Of a stretch of 64,000 nt of DNA, positions 398 to 58,000 are shown piece by piece. Made by a program: the position numbers and the translations under genes. The notes beneath the pieces were generated by a model, which was given only the letters and a program-made list of their open reading frames with translations, did not search any database and was not told where the DNA came from. The DNA lies in the NCBI RefSeq assembly GCF_036588685.1, contig NC_086378.1, positions 88,164,001-88,228,000 on the forward strand, given 5' to 3'. The stretch's first letter is position 1. Each line of letters starts with the position of its first letter. This stretch comes from Mytilus trossulus. Taxonomy: Eukaryota.

Positions 398-3300
398 ATT
401 GCCTGGTGCCGGTTTATTTTTACCAAAACCACCATCTTTTAATAAATCCTTTACGTTTTCTGTCATGACAGGTCCTGGCCATAAACTGACAAAAGCTACA
501 TTCATTTTTCTCAACTCTACAGCGCAGTCTGCTGCCATTCTATCACACTGAAGTAAATAAAACTATAGTTAATACATAGTAGTCACAAACAATCTTATCA
601 CTCAGTGACGGATACAGGGGAGGCTACGGGGGTTGAAACTCTCTTTTTTGGACGAGCAATGCATTTGAATGAGGACTTATAGTTCAAACCTCCCTTTTCT
701 CCTGGTATGGGAGTTTAAAAATGACTAAATTTCCTTTGTCATTTTGCAGTTAATAAAAATAAAAATAAAACCATAGTTAATACAGAGAAGTCACAAACAA
801 TCTTAAGTTTCAGCGTTTCAATGCATTATTAGTGTTTATTGTGTTGACACACTGATGTCAATATTATGGAATTTTATGTGACTACATACTACAAATAAGA
901 GGCTTAGCTACATATTAATCTAGGCTTAATCCACCATTTTCTTCACAAGTAAATCCTTGTACAAGTCAGGAATTTGATAGTTGTTTTCATTCGTTTGATA
1001 TGTTTGAGCTTTTGATTTTGCCATTTGATAAGGGACTTACTATCTTGAAATTTCGTAGATTGGTTATTTATTATTTAGCAGAGTGACAATGTCCAGTTTT
1101 GAATTACATATTATAGTTTCAGACTTTGATCAGAATTGTCTTTTAATCCAATTGCTGATTTATATCATGTAGGAACAATTGTCTAAACACTGACGGGTCG
1201 GGCTTATGGAATGACAGAACAATAGCTTTTCGAAATATTGAACATCTTGCATATATAATTGTGACGAAGAGCGCATTAAAACATTCGATTGATTTGAAAC
1301 TAAAATTGAGAAAGGAAATAGGGAATGTGTCAAAGCGACAACAACCCGACCATAGACCAGACAACTAATCTATAACAACATTGATTTTGCTGTTTAATTA
1401 TTGACTTACTGCTTCTTTACCAACGCCGTAAGGTACATTAAACAGGTACCTAAGACCACCAACTGACGATACATTAACAATTAAACCAGTTTTCCTTGCT
1501 GTCATCAATTTTGCTGCGTGCACAGAACACAGATAATGGTTTCTACAGAAAAAAATAATTGTTAACGTTTATTGTTAGTAATACAAAATTGCTCGTTATA
1601 TATAAATCTTGCTTGTAAAAAATGGTAGCAAACATCTTTATTGTAATAAATCCTTATATGGTCCTATTTTAATCAAATAAGACATGAAATACAGAAAAAA
1701 TATTGACAATTTATTCAAATCATTCTATGACAATTTACAGAAGATCAGATATGGAATTGAACATGTTAAGACTTATAAAACAGCTGAGATGCAATATGTT
1801 GTACAACATTGATGACACGATTACATATTTGATTGATGTTTTTTTTATCTATCCGTACACACCTATATTGCACTACTGTTAAGGTATCAAATGCCGAACT
1901 GTTCCTTCATATAAATAGATTGAGTTTACCCACCTTAGTCCTACATTTTAAACAGTATATATCCACGTTGTGATAGGCTGTTATGGAAATATTCTTTATA
2001 AAGCACAAAGGTGTCAGTATTCACCTCATAAACTTACAAAACCTTTGAATAGACTTATTAAGAAGGGATATAATTACGATACTGTTGTCAAGTCATTAAA
2101 GATTGCATATTTTGGCGTTAATATTGAGTCACTGATAAGGTCTTTGCGTCGGAACTAAACACATTTATTCTAAAAACAGTTGTTGGCATGACACGGGTTA
2201 TGTTCTTCTCATATATGTTATGATGGTATGATACTAAACCCCTTACGGGAAGGATTGTGCCTGATGTTCATATGATGAAATCATAATCTTTCAGTCAGTT
2301 TAATTGAAGTCTGGAGCTGGCATGTCAGTTAACTGCTAGTAGTCTGTTGTTATTTATGTATTATTGTCATTTTGTTTATTTTCTTTGGTTACATCTTCTG
2401 ACATCAGACTCGGACTTCTCTTGAACTGAATTTTAATGTGCGTATTGTTATGCTTTTACTTTTCTACACTGGTTAGAGGTATAGGGGGAGGGTTGAAATC
2501 TCACAAACATGTTTAACCCCGCCGCATTTTTGCGCCTGTCCCAAGTCAGGAGCCTCTGGCCTTTGTTAGTCTTGTATTATTTAAATTTTAGTTTCTTGTG
2601 TACAATTTGGAAATTAGTATGGCGTTCATTATCACTGAACTAGTATATATTTGTTTAGGGGCCAGCTGAAGGACGCCTCCGGGTGCGGGAATTTCTCGCT
2701 ACATTGAAGACCTGTTGGTGACCTTCTGCTGTTGTGTTTTTTATTTTGGTCGGGTTGTTGTCTCTTTGACACATTCCCCGTTTCCATTCTCAATTTTATG
2801 TTGCTAGAATGGCTTACCATAGTTATCAGAGATTACCTAGACTTTACACACCTTAGTCCTACATTGTTAACAGTATCCCACGTTGTGATAGGCTGTTGCC
2901 AGAATGGCTTACCATAGTTAACAGAAATTGCATAGACTTTACACACCTTAGTCCTACATTATTTACAGTATCCCACATTGTGATAGGCTGTTATAAACAG
3001 ATTGAATTTACCCATCTTAATCCTACATTATTAACAGTATCCCACGTTGTAATAGGCTGTTGCCAGAAAGGCTTACCATAGTTATCAGAGATTACCTAGA
3101 CTTTACAAACCTTAGTCCTACATTGTTAAAAGTATCCCACGTTGTGATTGGCTGTTACCAGAATGACTTACCATAGTTAACAGAAATTGCATAGACTTTA
3201 CCCACCTTAGTCCTGCATTATTAACAGTATCCCACGTTGTGATAGGCTGTTACCAGAATGGCTTACCATAGTTAAACAGAAATTGCATAGACTTTACCCA

Positions 3301-6300
3301 CCTTAGTCCTACATTATTAACAGTATCCCACGTTGTGATAGGCTGTTGCCAGAATGGCTTACCATAGTTATCAGAGATTGCCTAGAAAAATAAATTAAAT
3401 TGATGAAAATACATAATAATGAGATTAAATTAGCAGTCACACATGTTTTATTTGTCCATAGACCATAGCAACCTACTCAAATTTTACAGAAAAAAAACAT
3501 TATCCAAAAGCTTAATAATTATTGAGGTTATATGTACTGTATTTTGTGTTTTGTTTTTTGTCTTAGATTATGATTACCATTTTATTGCTTTTTAATAAAA
3601 TGGAGTTTTTTTAACGTTGCGTCGTTTGTTTTCTCTTATTTTTGAGTGTACATTCACATTGCAATAAGACGTGTCACGGTACTTGTCTATCCCAAATACA
3701 TGTATTTGGTTTTGATGTTATATTTTTTATTCTCGTGGGATTTTGTCTGATGCTTGGTCCGTTTCTGTGTGTGTTACATTTCAGTGTTGTGTCTTTGTTC
3801 TTCTCTTATATCTAATGCGTTTCCCTCGGTTTAAGTTTGTTACCTCAATTTCGTTTTTTGTCCATGGATTTATGAGTTTTGAACAGCGGTATACTACTGT
3901 TGCCTTTATTTATATTGATAGATATTATATTATATACGTAATTAATCGTTTCTTTAATGCGAGTTTTTCAGTCCATCATATCGCTCTTTTTGGAGTGGCT
4001 TTTTTATAGTTTGATTTGTTTAATATCAATATACAGTGTTTTATATCAAATGTTTCAATAAGGCGAGACTCTAATACAGTATTTTTCTTTCTTTTGATTG
4101 ATATGGGTGAAAAATTAATATAATAAATACAAATACTCAATTAATACCAACACAAAATATAAAGTATAACAAACCAAGACAACCCATTGTTTTGTGATAA
4201 ACAAAATGTATATGTATTACCTCTATAACAAAACAATAACACATTTAACATAACTTCTTAATGGTTTTATGTTTAAACAGCTTAAGTATTTTTGTGATTT
4301 TACTTTTTAATTGACTAGGATTGTCAGTGATATTGTTGGCTTTCTTCAAAACTACCTCTATCTACCCTTTTTGATTAGAAATATGCGCCATTTTTATCAA
4401 ATTTGGAAATTTATAATAAACTATGAAATTGACTGGAACTTCAATTTGCAGATCCTCTTTCAAGAGGTAAACCCTCATTTGGAATAAGACCCCTTATTGT
4501 CAGTGATAATACATAAATAGACCCTCAAGTGTGCAAATATAGTCATTTTAGGCATGACAAATGTTTAAATGAGTGTTTTTCAGTTTGTATTCATGCACAA
4601 TCACTAGTGAGACTACACTGTTTGGGGGGGGGGGGGAATTGTCTCTTTGGGAATAATTTTGAGCTATTTTTTCAAATTGGGATTTTATCTAGGGGAAAAG
4701 CCTTTATTCTCCAGTAATTTAAGGCAAACAATATCACTGATTGTCAGTTATCCTATCAAAGGTCTGTGGTTTTCTCCGGGCACTCCGGCTTCCTCTACCA
4801 ATAAAAACTGGCAGCCACGAAATAGCCCAAAAGTGGCGTTAAACACCAAAAAACAAAACCAAATGTTTATGCAGCCACCGTGTTTTTATTTTTGAGTTCT
4901 AATAGCATTAAATATACATGCCACATGGCAGCTTATTTACGTTATGCTCTTAATTTAAGGATACAGAACGTATCAGTTACATAATAAAAATAAAAACACA
5001 TAAAATAATATTACCTCTTGTCTTACAGAGTTAAAATGAAAGACAAATCACAAGTTATTTGCAGTGCCCATACCGGAACCAAACTATGTAGTAGCGGTCG
5101 CCATGTGTATTGCCTTAAAGGCGTCATCAATACCGTATTCAAACTTAAAAAGTTCATGCAAGCAAAAATTAAATAAGAAGCTAAAACAATATGTGAACGT
5201 ACTTTTACAGCAGCATATGCATTATTGACTAGAACATCTAATTGACCATTTTGTTCTTTAGACACGCGGTTAAACAGTTCCTCTATGTCACTGTCTTTGG
5301 AATGATCACATTGGACTGGAATACATTTCCCTCCTCTGCTCTCAATCTTAAAAATAGAAAAACCAAGAATATGGGTAATTCATTCATGACGCAAAACATG
5401 CACAGCTAAAAACACATACAGAGAGTTAAGGAATAATTAACGCGTTTAGTCTTAACCGTGTAGACCACAAATTGACTGATAGTTTTGACTGAATTGTAAA
5501 CTGAGGGCTTACATAAATTGCCTGTTTCACAGATATATGTGCTATCTGATTAAATTTCAGACCCATATTAACTCGTGTGAGTAATGGGAAATCCGAGAAA
5601 AATATCTAAATTGATTGGCATATATGAAGTTATTACTTGGTTTGGTTTATCTGTTCTGGATCATATGAGTATTTGGACCATACGCGTATCGTCATGACCA
5701 TATGGGTATATAATCATATGGTAGGGGTAATTAACACTCTGTTACAGTTTACTTAAAATACTTCTAAACTCTTTATATGGTATGACCGTTCATTAAAAAG
5801 ACGCTATCATAAAGGTAATTTTGCTGTTTTATTATAATAAAAAAGATCAGCTAAATAAAAGTTATAAGTTTCACAAAGTAAATTTTACTTACTTGTCAAT
5901 TTGACAAAACTTTAATAAACACATTTTTAAACGTATGGTCATTACCGATCGATTTGTTATTACCTCTATATCACTGTACACAGCTACAAAAAGGCTAGCT
6001 TTTCACTCGCAAACAAAAGGTGTAACTGAAAAGGATCGTGCACAACCAAGACTTGCAAATGCAAAATTAGCTATGATACCGTGTGGAAGGAAATATCATC
6101 TCAAACCTACATGCAAGAATGTAATTAGCGATGAAAACTAACTATGGCATCAATAGTTAATTTTTACGTATTATTTGAACTATAGAATAATACATTGTCA
6201 TTTAACCATCATTGTTTTTAGATACAGTTTTTGTATTATTGAAACTTAAATAATGTAATTTAAAAGAAAAAAACTATATGGTCTAAATACTCATATGGTC

Positions 6301-35302: not shown

Positions 35303-38300
35303 TTATGAAAGTGTTACTGTGTCGGCTTCACATATAAATGGGGCTTCCACATTGCAATCGTCATCATCCCATTGATAGCTTTGATCTGGTACTACTTTAA
35401 TACAGTTCTGATACTGCACTACATTTGAAGGCTCTCTGGGAGACCAGTTAGTCCATATGAGAGATGCTCCTACGCTTGTAGTAAATGTTCCATTGTGTCC
35501 CAGATCTATACCATCCATCCAAAAAGGAGCTGGGATCACAAATGACAAAGAAAATTAAATGTTTATTGCACATCAAGACAACAGTAGTATACCGCTGTTC
35601 GAAACTCATAAATCGATTGAGAGAAAAAAACATATCTGTAGATAAATCTACAAGTTAAACAGATGACTACTATAAAAGTTTGTATGTTGTCATTCTAATA
35701 TGCAATCTTAAATAAATCTTACATTGTGAAAAGTGTATCTTTTACCCTTTAAACAGATATTAGTTTATATAAATAATGTTAATACGGTATCTTTTTAAGT
35801 ACACATTGATACATAATCATTTTACATGTAAGGAACCTGAACCAGTGGTTGTCGTTTGTTGATGTGGTTCATAAATGTTTCTTGTTTCTTATATTTTTTT
35901 TATAGATTATACCGTTGGTTTTTAACATTTGAATGGTTTTACACTACTCGTTTTGGGAGATATTTATAGCTTACTGTTCGGTGTGAGACAAGACTCCGCG
36001 TTGAAGACCGTACTTTGACCTATACATGCTATAATGGTTTACTTTTACAAATTGTGTCTTCAATTGAGAGTAACTGTTGTCTCATTGGCACTTATACAAC
36101 ATTTGCTGATATCTACTTATTATGTATCTTTATTAATCATATGATTACCTGTATCAGTGGTTTCATTTATAATTGTCTTAAGAGCATTTGATGTCAAGTC
36201 ACTGTCAATCAGAATCAATATATGACCATCAGTTTTACATGTATCCAGTGCATTTTGCCAGCTGTTTCCGACACGGTAGTATTTGAAGCACTTTCCGGAT
36301 GCCGATGTGAAACCCCGGGGACAATTTACTGAAATGAAAATGAAATAATATCAGTTTGTTTTATATCACCACCATTCCTTTTTCAAAAATAATGTCTTCT
36401 CTGAAAAAAAAGCATTAGCATCACACAGCTTTAATAAATATATAAAAAGTAAAAACACAAAAATACTGAACTTCGAGGAAAATTCAAAATTAACTATAAA
36501 CACGTCTTTGATCTTATCTTTTTTTTTGTAAGTTAATGTTTTTGTGAATAAAGAAAAAAAAACATAAACTATTATATATATATTGAACCAAATGTCTTTT
36601 GGATTTATTGTTTGCAATATGGATGCAAAATTTGACAAAACAATTCTTGTATAATACTATAATCTTGTATCATAGTCATGATCGATTCGGAAATCAAAAC
36701 CTACATAGCAAAATCTTAAATAACTCGATAATAGTCCTATACGTTTACTCCATTAAGATATTTAAACGATAAATATTATTAGATTTTATTAATTTTAGAT
36801 ACCTTGACATTCGTCCAATGTGCATGTTTGTTGTTCCATGCTCTCTCCTTGACAGTCACTTCCGGTCGAGTTTGTACAATTCCGTGTTCTAGTTTGATTC
36901 CCTTGTCCACATTGGACGCTGCACTGAGACCAAATTGTCCACTCGCTCCAGTTACCGCTTACTCCTGAAAAAAATAGTTCAATTAAATGTATCGTTAAGC
37001 AGTTTTATTTTGTACTTCACAAAAAGTAAATAATGATTCCACATGTCACCCATAACGGCGTTATTGGCAAGTGAAATTAAGCTGGTACGCCAAATTCCTT
37101 ATGTCATCACCATGTAAAGGAGGGTAATATCACATACAGTTCAATGAAACTTGACCCACTGTAAAATTTCCACATTACCATACGAACCATTGATCCAATT
37201 CTTTGTTTAAAAGCAGCAACTCATAGTGTCTGTCTCCTATTTTCCTTTGTCTTGCATAATCCTTTTAAGAATGCATTCGAGTTTTAAAGTCATTAGAACT
37301 AAATCACTAAATCCATATGGATATATCAAACTAATAAAATCACAATAATTAAAATAGGAAAACCCTTAAGCAATTAAAAAACAAACCATGACAACTTCCT
37401 TGGCAAGGTACGTCTTCTTGGCTCCAACGTTCACAGTCAGCACCACCTTGATGTGGAATAGGTTCTATACACGTTCTTCTCCTTGATGAGTTGCCGGTCT
37501 TTCCACAGTCGGCACTACAGTCACTCCATTCTGTCCAAACTGTCCATCCATCACCATCTGGAAATAATTGGAATGTATATAAACAGGTATTTTCAAAACT
37601 TAAAATTGAAGTATTGAATTAAGAGCTTAGCCTATTGTTTGTCTTCGACTGCATTATCAACTATGTACATTGTTTATAATATAATAATGATATGTGCATG
37701 ACAACGTGTTTCTATTGATACATTGACACTTGTATTTATCTCGAGATTTAATTTAATTTCAAGATTTTATAAATTTAATTTTTTTATATACTTTCATATT
37801 TTTTTCAATTAAATTGTACGATTAATTTTTATAAACTGAAGAACAAATAGTGGACGATATTAGCAAGCGAAATCAAGGGCATTGTGCAAATGATAATACA
37901 AGCATGAAAATTAGCTCAAAGCATCATTATTATATACTGTTTAAGAAAAACTGCTGGATAATATTTTCAAAATAGCCACGGCCATTTTCTAAAATGGCTG
38001 AGTGTTTTTCAGTTGAAAAATGTTGATTTTTCTGGAAACTTTTCTTTGACGTTCTTTCTGTCGATGCCACTGCTGGCGGAGATTTATTTCCCCGAGGGTA
38101 TCACAGGCCCAGTAGTCAGAACTATTTGTGCTATTTGTGCTGACATGAATTATCATTGATATTGTTAGATTTATAAATTAACTGTTTACAAAATATTGAT
38201 TTTTTTCAAATACTCCGGCTTTTATAGATTACCTTAGCTGAATTTGGCAACACTTTTAGGAATTTTGGATCTCAATGCTCTTCAATTTCGTACTTTATTT

Positions 38301-52000: not shown

Positions 52001-55000
52001 AGAATTTTTAAAATCCTTTTATTTGAAATTAAACAACATAAAAAAATATGGAATTGTATGTGACAATCATTCAAGTGGGAGGCTTAGCTAGTTGTAAAAC
52101 AGGATTAATCCACCATTTCTAAATAAGTCAAGTCTGTACCAAATGTGTGTGAAATTTGCCTGTGTAAGTTAGAAACATTTTCATATTCTAGGCTGAACTA
52201 TGATAAACGTACATTATTTTTAACGCACACTATATTTTTGCTTGTTTATTTACGTTTTAGTTGGGTCTTTACCCGATATGGTCTACCCTTCAAAAGACTG
52301 CAAAACAATACTGGTTGCTGTAGAGGCGGAGGCCTATCAAGATAATGGTAGAATTGTAGATCCAGAAGGTGGAGTCGGGATAATCAAAATTAAAAATGAC
52401 AAAGCAACGTATAAAAAGTTGGACTTCAAAGAATTCAATTCAAAGTAATTATGCAAAGTAATTTTCTATTTGTGTGCATTCTATTATTATTATTAGTGCT
52501 AGATAATACATCCTTAAACAATAATTGGTGGAAATAAATTTAAATTGAGTGTTTATTCAAGATAATTATAAATTGATTTATCGTTAATTGCTTTACGACC
52601 ATTTGCAAATAATTCATGCATATTTAGGACGATATTCCCTGTATCAAAGAATGGGGAAAACCTATATTTAGTGTGAATACAAGATAAAACTCAATTAAAC
52701 TAAAATTATTCTAAATTTAAGAAAAAATCTCGGCAAAAATAGCATGTCTTTGATGTTAATATATGATGACTGTTTTACAGATGGTCAGATTTAGAATCCA
52801 AGGGATTACGTTTTATACATAGAGTTAATAACAACAACTTCTCCAATGATGTGGAACCAGAATATATAGCATATAACAAAGATTATTCCAAAGCTTACGT
52901 TTGTCTTCAGGTAAACAGAATATTTAGCATATAACAAAGATTATACCAAAAACTTACATTTGTCTTCAGGTAACCAAAATATATAGCATATAACAAAGAC
53001 AATTCCAAAGCTTACGTTTGTCTTCATGTAACCAGAATATAAAGCATATAACAAAAAATATTTCAAAAGCTAACATGTGTCTTCAGAAAACCAGAATATA
53101 TAGATTATAACAAAGAATATTCCAAAGCTTACATCTGGCTTCAGGTAACCAGAATATATAGCACATAACAAAGATTATTCCATAGCTTACATCTGTCTTC
53201 AGGTAACCAGAATATATAGCATCAAACAAAGATTATTCCAAAGCTTACATCTGTCTTCAGGTAACCAGAATATATAGCATCAAACAAAGATTATTCCATA
53301 GCTTACATGTGTCTTCAGGTAACCAGAATATATAGCATATAACAAAGATTATTCCATAGCTTACATCTGTCTTCAGGAAACCAGAATATATAGCATATAA
53401 CAAAGATTATTCCAAAGCTTACATCTAACTTCAGGTAACCAGAATATATAGCATCAAACAAAGATTATTCCAAAGCTTACATCTGTCTTCAGGTAACCAG
53501 AATATATAGCATATAACAAAGATTATTCCATAGCTTACATGTGTCTTCAGGTAACCAGAATATATAGCATATAACAAAGATTATTCCATAGCTTACATCT
53601 GTCTTCAGGAAACCAGAATATATAGCATCAAACAAAGATTATTCCATAGCTTACATCTGTCTTCAGGTAACCAGAATATATAGCATATAACAAAGATTAT
53701 TCCAAAGCTTACATGTGTCTTCAGGTAACCAGAATATATAGCATATAACAAAGATTATTCCAAAGCTTACATGTGTTTTCAGGTAACCAGAATATATAGC
53801 ATATAACAAAGATTATTCCAAAGCTTACATCTGTCTTCAGGTAACCAGAATATATAGCATATAACAAAGATTATACCATAGCTTACATGTGTCTTCAGGT
53901 AACCAGAATATATAGCATATAACAAAGATTATTCCATAGCTTACATCTGTCTTCAGGTAACCAGAATATTTAGCATATAACAAAGATTATTCCATAGCTT
54001 ACATGTGTCTTCAGGTAACCAGAATATATAGCATATAACAAAGATTATTCCATAGCTTACATCTGTCTTCAGGTAACCAGAATATATAGCATATAACAAA
54101 GATTATTCTAAAGCTTACATCTGTCTTCAGGTAACCAGAATATATAGCATCAAACAAAGATTATTCCAAAGCTTACATGTGTCTTCAGGTAACCAGAATA
54201 TATAGCATATAACAAAGATTATTCCAAAGCTTACATCTGTCTTCAGGTAACCAGAATATATAGCATCAAACAAAGATTATTCCAAAGCTTACATGTGTTT
54301 TCAGGTAACCAGAATATATAGCACATAACAAAGATTATTCCAAAGCTTACATCTGTCTTCAGGTAACCAGAATATATAGCATATAACAAAGATTATTCCA
54401 TAGCTTACATCTGTCTTCAGGTAACCAGAATATATAGCATCAAACAAAGATTATTCCATAGCTTACATGTGTCTTCAGGTAACCAGAATATATAGCATAT
54501 AACAAAAATTATTCCATAGCTAATGTGTGTCTTCAGGTAACCAGAATATATAGCACATAACAAAGATTATTCCATAGCTTACATCTGTCTTCAGGTAACC
54601 AGAATATATAGCATATAACAAAGATTATTCCATAGCTTACATCTGTCTTCAGGTAACCAGAATATATAGCATCAAACAAAGATTATTCCATAGCTTACAT
54701 GTGTCTTCAGGTAACCAGAATATATAGCATATAACAAAAATTATTCCATAGCTAATGTGTGTCTTCAGGTAACCAGAATATATAGCACATAACAAAGATT
54801 ATTCCAAAGCTTACATCTGTCTTCAGGTAACCAGAATATATAGCATATAACAAAGATTATTCCATAGCTTACATCTGTCTTCAGGTAACCAGAATATATA
54901 GCATCAAACAAAGATTATTCCATAGCTTACATGTGTCTTCAGGTAACCAGAATATATAGCATATAACAAAAATTATTCCATAGCTAATGTGTGTCTTCAG

Positions 55001-58000
55001 GTAACCAGAATATATAGCACATAACAAAGATTATTCCATAGCTTACATCTGTCTTCAGGTAACCAGAATATATAGCATCAAACAAAGATTATTCTAAAGC
55101 TTACATCTGTCTTCAGGTAACCAGAATATATAGCACATAACAAAGATTATTCCATAGCTTACATCTGTCTTCAGGTAACCAGAATATATAGCATCAAACA
55201 AAGATTATTCCATAGCTTACATCTGTCTTCAGGTAACCAGAATATATAGCATATAACAAAGATTATTCCAAAGCTTACATCTGTCTTCAGGTAACCAGAA
55301 TATATAGCACATAACAAAGATTATTCCATAGCTTACATCTGTCTTCAGGTAACCAGAATATATAGCATCAAACAAAGATTATTCCATAGCTTACATCTGT
55401 CTTCAGGTAACCAGAATATATAGCATATAACAAAGATTATTCCAAAGCTTACATCTGTCTTCAGGTAACCAGAATATATAGCATATGACAAAGATTATTC
55501 CATAGCTTACATCTGTCTTCAGGTAACCAGAATATATAGCATATAACAAAGATTATTCCATAGCTTACATCTGTCTTCAGGAAACCAGAATATATAGCAT
55601 CAAACAAAGAATATTCCAAAGCTTACATCTGTCTTCAGGTAACCAGAATATATAGCATCAAACAAAGATTATTCCATAGCTTACATCTGTCTTCAGGTAA
55701 CCAGAATATATAGCATATAACAAAAATTATTCCATAGCTTACATCTGTCTTCAGGTAACCAGAATATATAGCATCAAACAAAGATTATTCCATAGCTTAC
55801 ATGTGTCTTCAGGTAACCAGAATATATAGCATCAAACAAAGATTATTCCAAAGCTTACATCTGTCTTCAGGTAACCAGAATATATAGCATCAAACAAAGA
55901 TTATTCCAAAGCTTACATCTGTCTTCAGGTAACCAGAATATATAGCATATGACAAAGATTATTCCATAGCTTACATCTGTCTTCAGGTAACCAGAATATA
56001 TAGCATCAAACAAAGATTATTCCAAAGCTTACATCTGTCTTCAGGTAACCAGAATATATAGCATATGACAAAGATTATTCCATAGCTTACATCTGTCTTC
56101 AGGTAACCAGAATATATAGCACATAACAAAGATTATTCCATAGCTTACATGTGTCTTCAGGTAACCAGAATATATAGCATATAACAAAGATTATTCCATA
56201 GCTTACATCTGTCTTCAGGTAACCAGAATATATAGCATATAACAAAGATTATTCTAAAGCTTACATCTGTCTTCAGGTAACCAAAATATATAGCATCAAA
56301 CAAAGATTATTCCATAGCTAATGTGTGTATTCAGGTAACCAGAAGATATAGCATATAATAAAAATTATTCCATAGCTTACATCTGTCTTCAGGTAACCAG
56401 AATATATAGCATCAAACAAAGATTATTCCATAGCTTACATCTGTCTTCAGGTAACCAGAATATATAGCATATAACAAAAATTATTCCATAGCTTACATCT
56501 GTCTTCAGGTAACCAGAATATATAGCATCAAACAAAGATTATTCCATAGCTTACATGTGTCTTCAGGTAACCAGAATATATAGCATCAAACAAAGATTAT
56601 TCCAAAGCTTACATCTGTCTTCAGGTAACCAGAATATATAGCATCAAACAAAGATTATTCCAAAGCTTACATCTGTCTTCAGGTAACCAGAATATATAGC
56701 ATATGACAAAGATTATTCCATAGCTTACATCTGTCTTCAGGTAACCAGAATATATAGCATCAAACAAAGATTATTCCAAAGCTTACATCTGTCTTCAGGT
56801 AACCAGAATATATAGCATATGACAAAGATTATTCCATAGCTTACATCTGTCTTCAGGTAACCAGAATATATAGCATCAAACAAAGATTATTCCAAAGCTT
56901 ACATCTGTCTTCAGGTAACCAGAATATATAGCATATGACAAAGATTATTCCATAGCTTACATCTGTCTTCAGGTAACCAGAATATATAGCACATAACAAA
57001 GATTATTCCATAGCTTACATGTGTCTTCAGGTAACCAGAATATATAGCATATAACAAAGATTATTCCATAGCTTACATCTGTCTTCAGGTAACCAGAATA
57101 TATAGCATATAACAAAGATTATTCTAAAGCTTACATCTGTCTTCAGGTAACCAAAATATATAGCATATAACAAAGATTATTCCAAAGCTAATGTGTGTCT
57201 TCAGGTAACCAGAATATATAGCATATAACAAAGATTATTCCAAAGCTAATGTGTGTATTCAGGTAACCAGAAGATATAGCATATAATAAAAATTATTCCA
57301 AAGCTAACATTTGTCTTCAGGTAACCAGAATATATAGCATATAACAAAGATTATTCCAAAGCTTACATTTGTTTTCAGGTTATTATTTTAATTGATTTTA
57401 TATTATACTAGTCTTATATTTACATCCCAGAATGAAAAAAGAATGTTTGCCCATTTTGATTCCTTTAAAAATGTGGGATCTAGAATAAAAAAGGGCATCG
57501 TGTCGTCATCAAACTACGACATCAACATCGAAGAGAAAACATCGAACATGGTCCAAGACATGCGTTCAATGTTGATCCAAGACATGCGTTCAATGTTGGT
57601 CCAAGACATGCGTTCAATGTTGGTCCAAGACATGCGTTCACTGTTGGTCCAAGACATGCGTTCAATGTTGGTCCAAGACATGTGTGTTCAATGTTGGTCC
57701 AAGACATGTGTTCAATGTTGGTCCAAGACATGTGTTCAATGTTGGTCCAAGACATGTGTTCAATGTTGGTCCAAGACATGCGTTAAATGTTGGTCCAAGA
57801 CATGTGTTCAATGTTGGTCTAATACTGAACGTGGTTATAAAACATGGAATTCAATGCCGGATACAAACAAAGACATAAACAGACAGAGAAAAACACTGAC
57901 AACATGTATTGCTTCAGACAGTCCCGTTAAAAAATATAAAACTGTTCAACCGTCCTTGTATTACTCAATAGAAAAACCAGATAAAAACCATAAAAAGGAA

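Follow-up and report, generated by a model that had tools for sequence, protein, structure and literature searches.

A probable donor-spanning minisatellite at exon 4 of a DHRS1-like gene in the mussel Mytilus trossulus

Known donor arrays and the mussel locus

Tandem arrays whose repeat unit crosses an exon-intron boundary have been described in human genes and in lancelets, and we compare them here with an array in the mussel Mytilus trossulus. The stretch of DNA that was analysed (the window) comprises 64,000 nucleotides, positions 88164001-88228000 of contig NC_086378.1 (C6) in a genome of 1.30 Gb. Within it, exon 4 of a gene that appears to encode a DHRS1-like short-chain dehydrogenase/reductase (SDR), here called gene A and located on the minus strand, is followed in the next intron by six whole or incomplete copies of itself, which we call echoes. 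Among human genes, F7 carries in intron 7 a 37-bp variable number of tandem repeats (VNTR), with a unit of 4 nt of exon and 33 nt of intron and with identical donors. According to the passages of PMC1557585 cited here, its identical downstream donors, as mutation showed, work but do not compete, and in LAMIN B2 (100-bp unit) and PDGF (81-bp unit) the first donor only is used. In lancelets, minisatellite-like duplications of exon-intron boundaries, called mirages, occur in the globin genes BflGb6 and BflGb9 and in Adh3. The cited excerpts of PMC3087553 describe regular splicing as undisturbed, unit identities of 81-100%, unit numbers that differ between haplotypes, and splice signals that are kept in many, not all, units. 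More generally, an association of tandem repeats with variation in splicing can occur in humans (PMC10078293, in the part cited). Our literature search found no paper on the mussel locus, or on such arrays or mirages in mussels.

The array in gene A is likely an ordinary member of the F7 / mirage type, a donor-spanning minisatellite. We hold, with a probability of roughly 85%, that it is a polymorphic minisatellite of which the first unit is the real exon 4 with its donor, that this first donor is used, and that the echoes are removed with the intron and are likely neutral. Its first unit spans the exon-intron boundary, the donor is reiterated in the intron, splicing takes the most upstream donor (for gene A, in the contigs examined) and the array varies between haplotypes, all of which it has in common with F7. 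The two differ in three respects: the unit in gene A comprises all 80 nt of the exon together with the acceptor AG and 15 nt of intron; its copies are 91-96% like the exon and are accompanied by a second-order duplication and a mobile-element insertion; and the pseudo-sites of F7 were shown by mutation to be functional, while the echo donors of gene A are putative sites. With the lancelet mirages it shares the layout of an invertebrate boundary minisatellite, variable between haplotypes and with regular splicing, whereas BflGb6 repeats the acceptor side in units of 150-160 bp and the units of Adh3 measure 10-72 bp. For Adh3, somatic instability is also reported in the cited excerpts of PMC3087553.

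Structure and variation of the array

Six coding exons of gene A were located on the minus strand by a six-frame motif scan. Together they form a frame of 228 residues that is open across all six and has GT-AG borders; a further two exons (7 and 8) fall immediately beyond the left edge of the window. The classical hallmarks of SDRs are the motifs TGxxxGxG, NNA and YxxxK, and gene A has TGATRGIG, NNAY and YGVGK, all within the one 228-aa open frame. For each of the three exons searched, human DHRS1 (PDB 2QQ5) was the top match among solved structures (E-values of 4e-14 for exon 3, 0.003 for exon 4 and 9e-8 for exon 6), which agrees with the name given to the gene in an earlier reading of the bare sequence (the original prediction). 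The family adh_short matched three of the four exons scanned (1, 3 and 5), each alone below the Pfam whole-protein cut-off. These matches support gene A as a putative DHRS1-like SDR. Human DHRS1 is its nearest solved relative, with the difference that gene A is one of four tandem paralogues. The exons of gene A in the window are as follows.

9768-9657, minus strand: exon 1, coding part, with the TGATRGIG motif; without echo, unlike in the three paralogues
6814-6750, minus strand: exon 2, 65 nt, recognised by splice signals and open frame
5346-5203, minus strand: exon 3, 144 nt; two RNA contigs join it to 3381
3400-3382, minus strand: acceptor of exon 4, a T-rich tract plus AG, of which only the final 5 nt entered the repeat unit
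3381-3302, minus strand: exon 4 (the real exon), 80 nt, unit 1 of the array; donor AAG/GTGGGT at 3302, seen in use (the slash marks the exon-intron border)
1542-1410, minus strand: exon 5, 133 nt, contains the catalytic motif YGVGK; RNA contigs join it to 3302
547-398, minus strand: exon 6, 150 nt

The repeat unit consists of exon 4 plus 15 nt of intron and recurs with a period of about 95 bp, with six echoes in the following intron. Tandem Repeats Finder (TRF) gave a period of 95 at 3007-3386 and at 2799-2992, as had been predicted, except that the first spacing is 96. Six further donor positions are present (3206, 3111, 3016, 2947, 2852 and 1934), which matches the six echoes of the original prediction in number; only four of them, however, belong to whole copies of the exon, one copy being partial (2947) and one split by an 816-bp dispersed repeat (1934). 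All copies match far beyond chance (blastn E-values per copy from 1e-15 to 1e-41), and in the four whole echoes 4, 7, 4 and 3 of 80 letters are unlike the real exon. No phage match was found for the repeat unit. In the order of transcription, the units beyond the real exon are as follows.

3301-3206, minus strand: echo 1, 96 nt; 15 nt of intron start and an exon copy with an extra T; its AG is lost, a TAA stands at 3252 and the donor equals the real one
3205-3111, minus strand: echo 2, 95 nt; AG lost, donor weakened (GTTTGT)
3110-3016, minus strand: echo 3, 95 nt; AG intact, donor destroyed (GT>AT); then comes a copy of the ancestral intron start
3015-2947, minus strand: echo 4, 69 nt; ancestral intron start and the last ~46 nt of the exon, at the junction of a 259-bp second-order duplication
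2946-2852, minus strand: echo 5, 95 nt; AG lost, donor GTGTGT
2851-2799, minus strand: echo 6, 5' half; AG intact, TGG>TAG nonsense change
1982-1934, minus strand: echo 6, 3' half; donor the same as the real one; beyond it, from 1933 downwards, the ancestral unique intron
1983-2798, plus strand: the 816-bp dispersed repeat inside echo 6, with a 4-nt target duplication (1979-1982 / 2799-2802)

The ancestral intron start stands both after echo 3 and after echo 6, and in an alignment of 3251-2993 with 2992-2799, 183 of 194 letters are alike; from these two observations we infer that the 259-bp block was duplicated after the array had formed. The dispersed repeat in echo 6 has 47 other matches in 734 kb, with fixed right ends and ragged left ends, which suggests that the 816-bp insert is a 5'-truncated retroelement. 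Its 57-aa frame matched no Pfam family above the cut-off. The array itself would have begun as a tandem duplication from the last 5 nt of the acceptor to some 11-15 nt into the intron, and further units would have been gained by unequal crossover or slippage. Duplication of the 259-bp block would have come next, and the mobile element would have split the last unit later. An origin by tandem duplication or unequal crossover had been proposed before, and both the second-order duplication and the differences between haplotypes bear it out. The TCTA microhomology that was offered in its favour is circular as stated, since the TCTAG at the unit junction is the copied acceptor itself. When the acceptor is set against the ancestral intron start, a 2-nt TC overlap together with one substitution gives exactly 95, while a TCTA overlap gives 99 and a later deletion is then needed; the choice between these forms of the original junction is a matter of inference from the letters.

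A donor-like ATG/GTAAG is also present inside the real exon, 19 nt from its start, as well as in five echoes (3363, 3267, 3172, 3077, 2913 and 2818, minus strand), and the array thus holds more donor-like sites than the six echo donors.

The array is polymorphic in unit order and junctions. Contigs of two DNA runs (X1 and X2) were compared with the window; the runs come from different studies and have different organism labels, and either could be related to the assembled sample. They contained 0.75 and 0.55 of the sampled words of the stretch, which also occurs in gill and mollusc metagenomes. Aligned on one unit, both runs show back-joints of 95 and 93 letters as well as the second-order junction, and AG-intact junctions are present in both. 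A junction type and an order of units that the window lacks are found in X1: in one contig, an exon-identical unit is followed directly by a copy with the ancestral intron start. In a contig of X2, the last copy is uninterrupted by the 816-bp insertion and runs on into the ancestral intron. Copy numbers are not obtainable from these contigs, and contig depth is no copy number. The X1 depths were also read as those of a heterozygote of a three-echo allele and the six-echo allele of the window, and this was rejected on the ground that the joint types differ from those of the window.

Splicing of exon 4 and the fate of the echoes

The main transcript splices at the upstream-most donor, 3302. Two runs from two studies (X14 and X16), which are probably RNA and in which the joins are spliced, yielded four contigs, three of gene A and the fourth of paralogue D. 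All three gene A contigs carry the letters of exon 5 directly beyond exon 4, with the join at 3302/3305 (one allele differs at 3304), and two of the three carry exon-3 letters beyond 3381. The exon-4 pieces in the RNA contigs have 0-1 letters unlike the real exon, fewer than any echo. None of the four contigs covers 3287-3296 or enters the array, contigs being prone to drop rare variants, and a stop-bearing distal junction was found in none of the four assembled contigs, which represent the major form only. In nine runs the share of sampled words was 0.09, about that of the exons only, and the splice evidence comes from X14 and X16 only. One X14 contig has 15 loose letters past the acceptor of exon 4 (3383), for which no match was found in exon 3 or in the 134 kb searched; our guess is that they are adapter or chimera.

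The splice signals of the echoes were compared with those of the real exons. Per 17 nt there are 6-8 pyrimidines before the copies versus 11-14 before five real acceptors, which confirms that the copies are without a polypyrimidine tract. The unit starts 5 nt before the exon and therefore never had a T-rich tract inside it, which removes the ground for a selective disabling of the acceptors. It is correct that AG is lost in three copies; the loss is, however, a single change (AG>AT) inherited by all three, and in the two copies described as changed to AG/GT the AG is intact and the second base of the exon is altered. No whole echo in the window has both AG and GT. As for the donors, GT is retained in five of six echoes, the full real 9-mer in only two of six. 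Pairing of the donors with U1 was scored as a crude count, not with a trained model. As only unit 1 has a T-rich acceptor, exon definition, or the first-donor scanning demonstrated in human F7, would pick 3302.

The echo donors are no better kept than the echo bodies: the donor 9-mers have 5/54 differences and the bodies of the whole echoes 18/320 (Fisher p 0.35; within this array only). The 16 distinct substitutions in the echo bodies comprise 7 synonymous, 7 missense and 2 nonsense changes, and two small insertions and the mobile element have added to the decay. The echoes are likely neutral, decaying intron DNA.

The distal donors had been expected to give frameshifted RNA prone to nonsense-mediated decay (NMD). 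A premature stop is indeed predicted for all six, with every extension ending at one TAA (3252), but the frameshift is the wrong reason: because the first spacing is 96 and not 95, three of the six distal donors are in frame (3206 at +96, 2852 at +450 and 1934 at +1368). Without the extra T, a unit of 95 nt likewise runs into a stop within the first echo, and the premature stop is therefore predicted for other alleles too. Stop codons in the copies, also part of the original prediction, are present as the TAA at 3252 and the TGG>TAG change in echo 6. Any rare read-through RNA would run into the stop in the first echo and probably be degraded; the array may for this reason cost little and persist.

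The most far-reaching claim made for the locus was that of a decoy-donor field, in which the echo donors rival 3302, part of the transcripts run to a stop and NMD, and the number of echoes tunes the output of the gene. We regard this as improbable. The GT in five of six echoes and the full real donor in two of them would suit it, as would the fact that every extension stops far upstream of later junctions, that the arrangement differs between samples and that a donor array is present in all four paralogues; the frequent ties between human tandem repeats and splicing variation (PMC10078293, in the part cited) keep the idea open at low odds. None of the four RNA contigs enters the array, however, and 3302 is the only donor used in the gene A contigs. 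Sites maintained for alternative splicing coupled to NMD would be conserved above background, and within this array the echo donors are not; they decay like the bodies. The pseudo-sites of F7 match its real donor exactly and yet do not compete with it (PMC1557585, passages as above). The donor arrays of the four paralogues amount to two events at different exons, one of them common to three paralogues, and the layout appears to be common in the genome. Still less probable is that the echoes are, or will become, alternatives to exon 4, as nascent tandem or mutually exclusive exons. Echo 5, with only 3/80 letters unlike the exon and an open frame, comes nearest to such an exon, AG-intact junctions are found in X1 and X2, and recruitment of such units has been proposed (PMC3087553, excerpts as above). 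Exons of this kind would have an acceptor, a donor and a spliceable intron for each copy. The echoes do not: there is no T-rich tract before any of them, only 15 nt lie between a donor and the next unit, AG and GT do not occur together in a whole echo of the window, and the exon-4 pieces in the RNA contigs are 0-1 letters from the real exon.

That the array might be an artefact of assembly, a possibility which the original prediction itself had raised, deserves hardly any credence. No listed contig spans the whole array, and one DNA run could be kin of the assembled sample; but the copies differ at 3-7 of 80 letters, the array has second-order structure and an insertion, and junctions with other unit orders are present in two DNA runs of different studies. 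The array is therefore no assembly artefact. The reading as a neutral minisatellite with use of the first donor has points against it as well. In 6-16 and CBS, two of the five human genes listed in the cited passages of PMC1557585, two pseudo-sites are also used, and in gene A the donors at 3206 and 1934 are identical to the real donor over 11 letters. The RNA evidence consists of three contigs, in which rare variants are dropped, and the animals that gave the RNA may carry other array alleles. Synonymous changes make up 7/16 of the echo substitutions versus 27% expected (p 0.11), and some of them may have arisen in the real exon. Finally, AG was lost by two different routes, one in the window and one in X1; together with the absence of an echo that has both AG and GT, this may reflect selection against a spliceable copy and not pure drift.

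Donor arrays elsewhere in the genome

Three paralogues of gene A (B, C and D) lie within 50 kb to its left, which makes four genes in tandem, with a protein identity of 76-86% over five exon cores. Echoes within 3.5 kb were found for 4 of the 32 exon cores in this cluster, namely exon 4 in gene A and exon 1 in each of the three paralogues, with 2, 2 and 16 echo matches for B, C and D.

C6:88121721-88123127: paralogue D, array of exon 1 plus donor, ~15 units, broken by an insertion
C6:88137978-88138206: paralogue C, array of exon 1 plus donor
C6:88152173-88152438: paralogue B, array of exon 1 plus donor

The three exon-1 arrays have one common breakpoint and a period of 95, with ~10 nt of intron and 85 nt of exon in the unit. 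The D echoes are alike to the D exon at 75-79 of 85 letters and to the exons of the other genes at 60-69, which is a sign of turnover from the functional unit. The B echoes are nearer to the exon of C than to that of B itself, hinting at gene conversion. Just after the exon-4 donor of paralogue B, a 15-nt duplication has produced a second donor-like GTAAGT (C6:88149081-88149112). A preferred period of 95 bp was considered and is likely a coincidence: the exon-4 unit and the D exon-1 unit are unrelated (219 of 300 shuffles score as high), and in a 600-kb sample period 95 was found in 0/69 arrays of period 40-300 and a period of 93-97 in 2/69. Other donor arrays have periods of 27-101.

Two further arrays are located at neighbouring exons of a gene which we take to be GOSR1, from its sequence and a V-SNARE_C match.

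C8:19108794-19111529: GOSR1-like array 1, period 98, 27.9 copies, 98% alike
C8:19112906-19113256: GOSR1-like array 2, at the neighbouring exon, period 89, 3.9 copies, 98% alike

A pattern of three AGGTRAGT at a spacing of 83-108 nt gave 2733 matches genome-wide versus 611 for the reversed control, counted as matches and not as arrays. The first 100 of the 2733 matches represent 8 arrays on C1 (2.46-54.1 Mb), with up to 111 units, and seven of these start in an exon-like stretch that has an AG upstream of it, mostly behind a T-rich tract, and a frame open as far as the first donor. These starts are putative exons. One of the C1 arrays (L122) has a second array at the next exon. By their sequence, exon plus donor arrays look common in this genome. 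In a random 600-kb sample, which was without annotation, no array could be tied to an exon. The corresponding acceptor pattern gave 738 matches versus 320 for the control, of which the first 100 fell in one array and were uninformative. C1:7631831-7638571 contains over 100 tandem units of 53 bp, all of which carry an acceptor-like TTTTCAG/R; this may be an acceptor-side counterpart. A genome search with adh_short scored 18 of 334 candidates and missed the DHRS1 cluster, and no echo survey was derived from it.

Within the window itself, a 58-bp array of 78 copies, 93% alike, is present at 52855-57380, near a 24-bp array of 11 copies (57549-57819). An exon of another gene at ~37500-37600, minus strand, presumably encodes a thrombospondin-type-1-like repeat, judging by its W/C pattern.

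The position of the breakpoints bears on the origin of the arrays. In seven of seven exon-linked arrays, found by a donor-motif search that is blind to the exon share, intron makes up 11-27 nt of the unit, and the mean intron fraction is 0.35 (simulated p 0.02, post hoc, n=7). The split between exon and intron was read from the sequence for L120, L121, the second array of L122, L123, and the DHRS1 genes A and B. In the DHRS1 and GOSR1 arrays the intron share is 9-15 nt, and in one further array, L122, it is ~41 nt. One explanation would be that splice donors are mutational hotspots, with transcription- or splicing-coupled duplications that end just past the donor; we think this unlikely, though less so than a decoy function of the echoes. 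Apart from the short intron shares, it has in its favour that the single donor motif is no commoner than its reverse (17 vs 28 in 600 kb), yet the triple is (2733 vs 611). Against it stand the post hoc nature of the test on seven arrays, the ~41 nt of intron in the one L122 array, match counts dominated by long arrays, and array exons without RNA confirmation; moreover, selection alone favours the survival of donor-spanning duplications. The clustering of breakpoints may thus reflect a mutational bias at donors, or small numbers and selection. As the hotspot idea concerns the origin of the array, it is compatible with neutral echoes.

The single locus is of little weight, its layout having been described in human and lancelet and the main transcript seeming unchanged, although such arrays can mislead gene prediction and read mapping. 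It is a tentative and rather unlikely proposition that hundreds of mussel genes have exon plus donor arrays with breakpoints ~10-27 nt into the intron, which would point to a transcription- or splicing-coupled duplication mechanism. If it were true, the DHRS1 cluster, hit twice with 95-bp units, would be a natural panel of donor-number alleles outside mammals. Arrays that are common and individually variable would provide natural alleles for the study of first-donor selection in molluscs and of a bias towards donor duplication.

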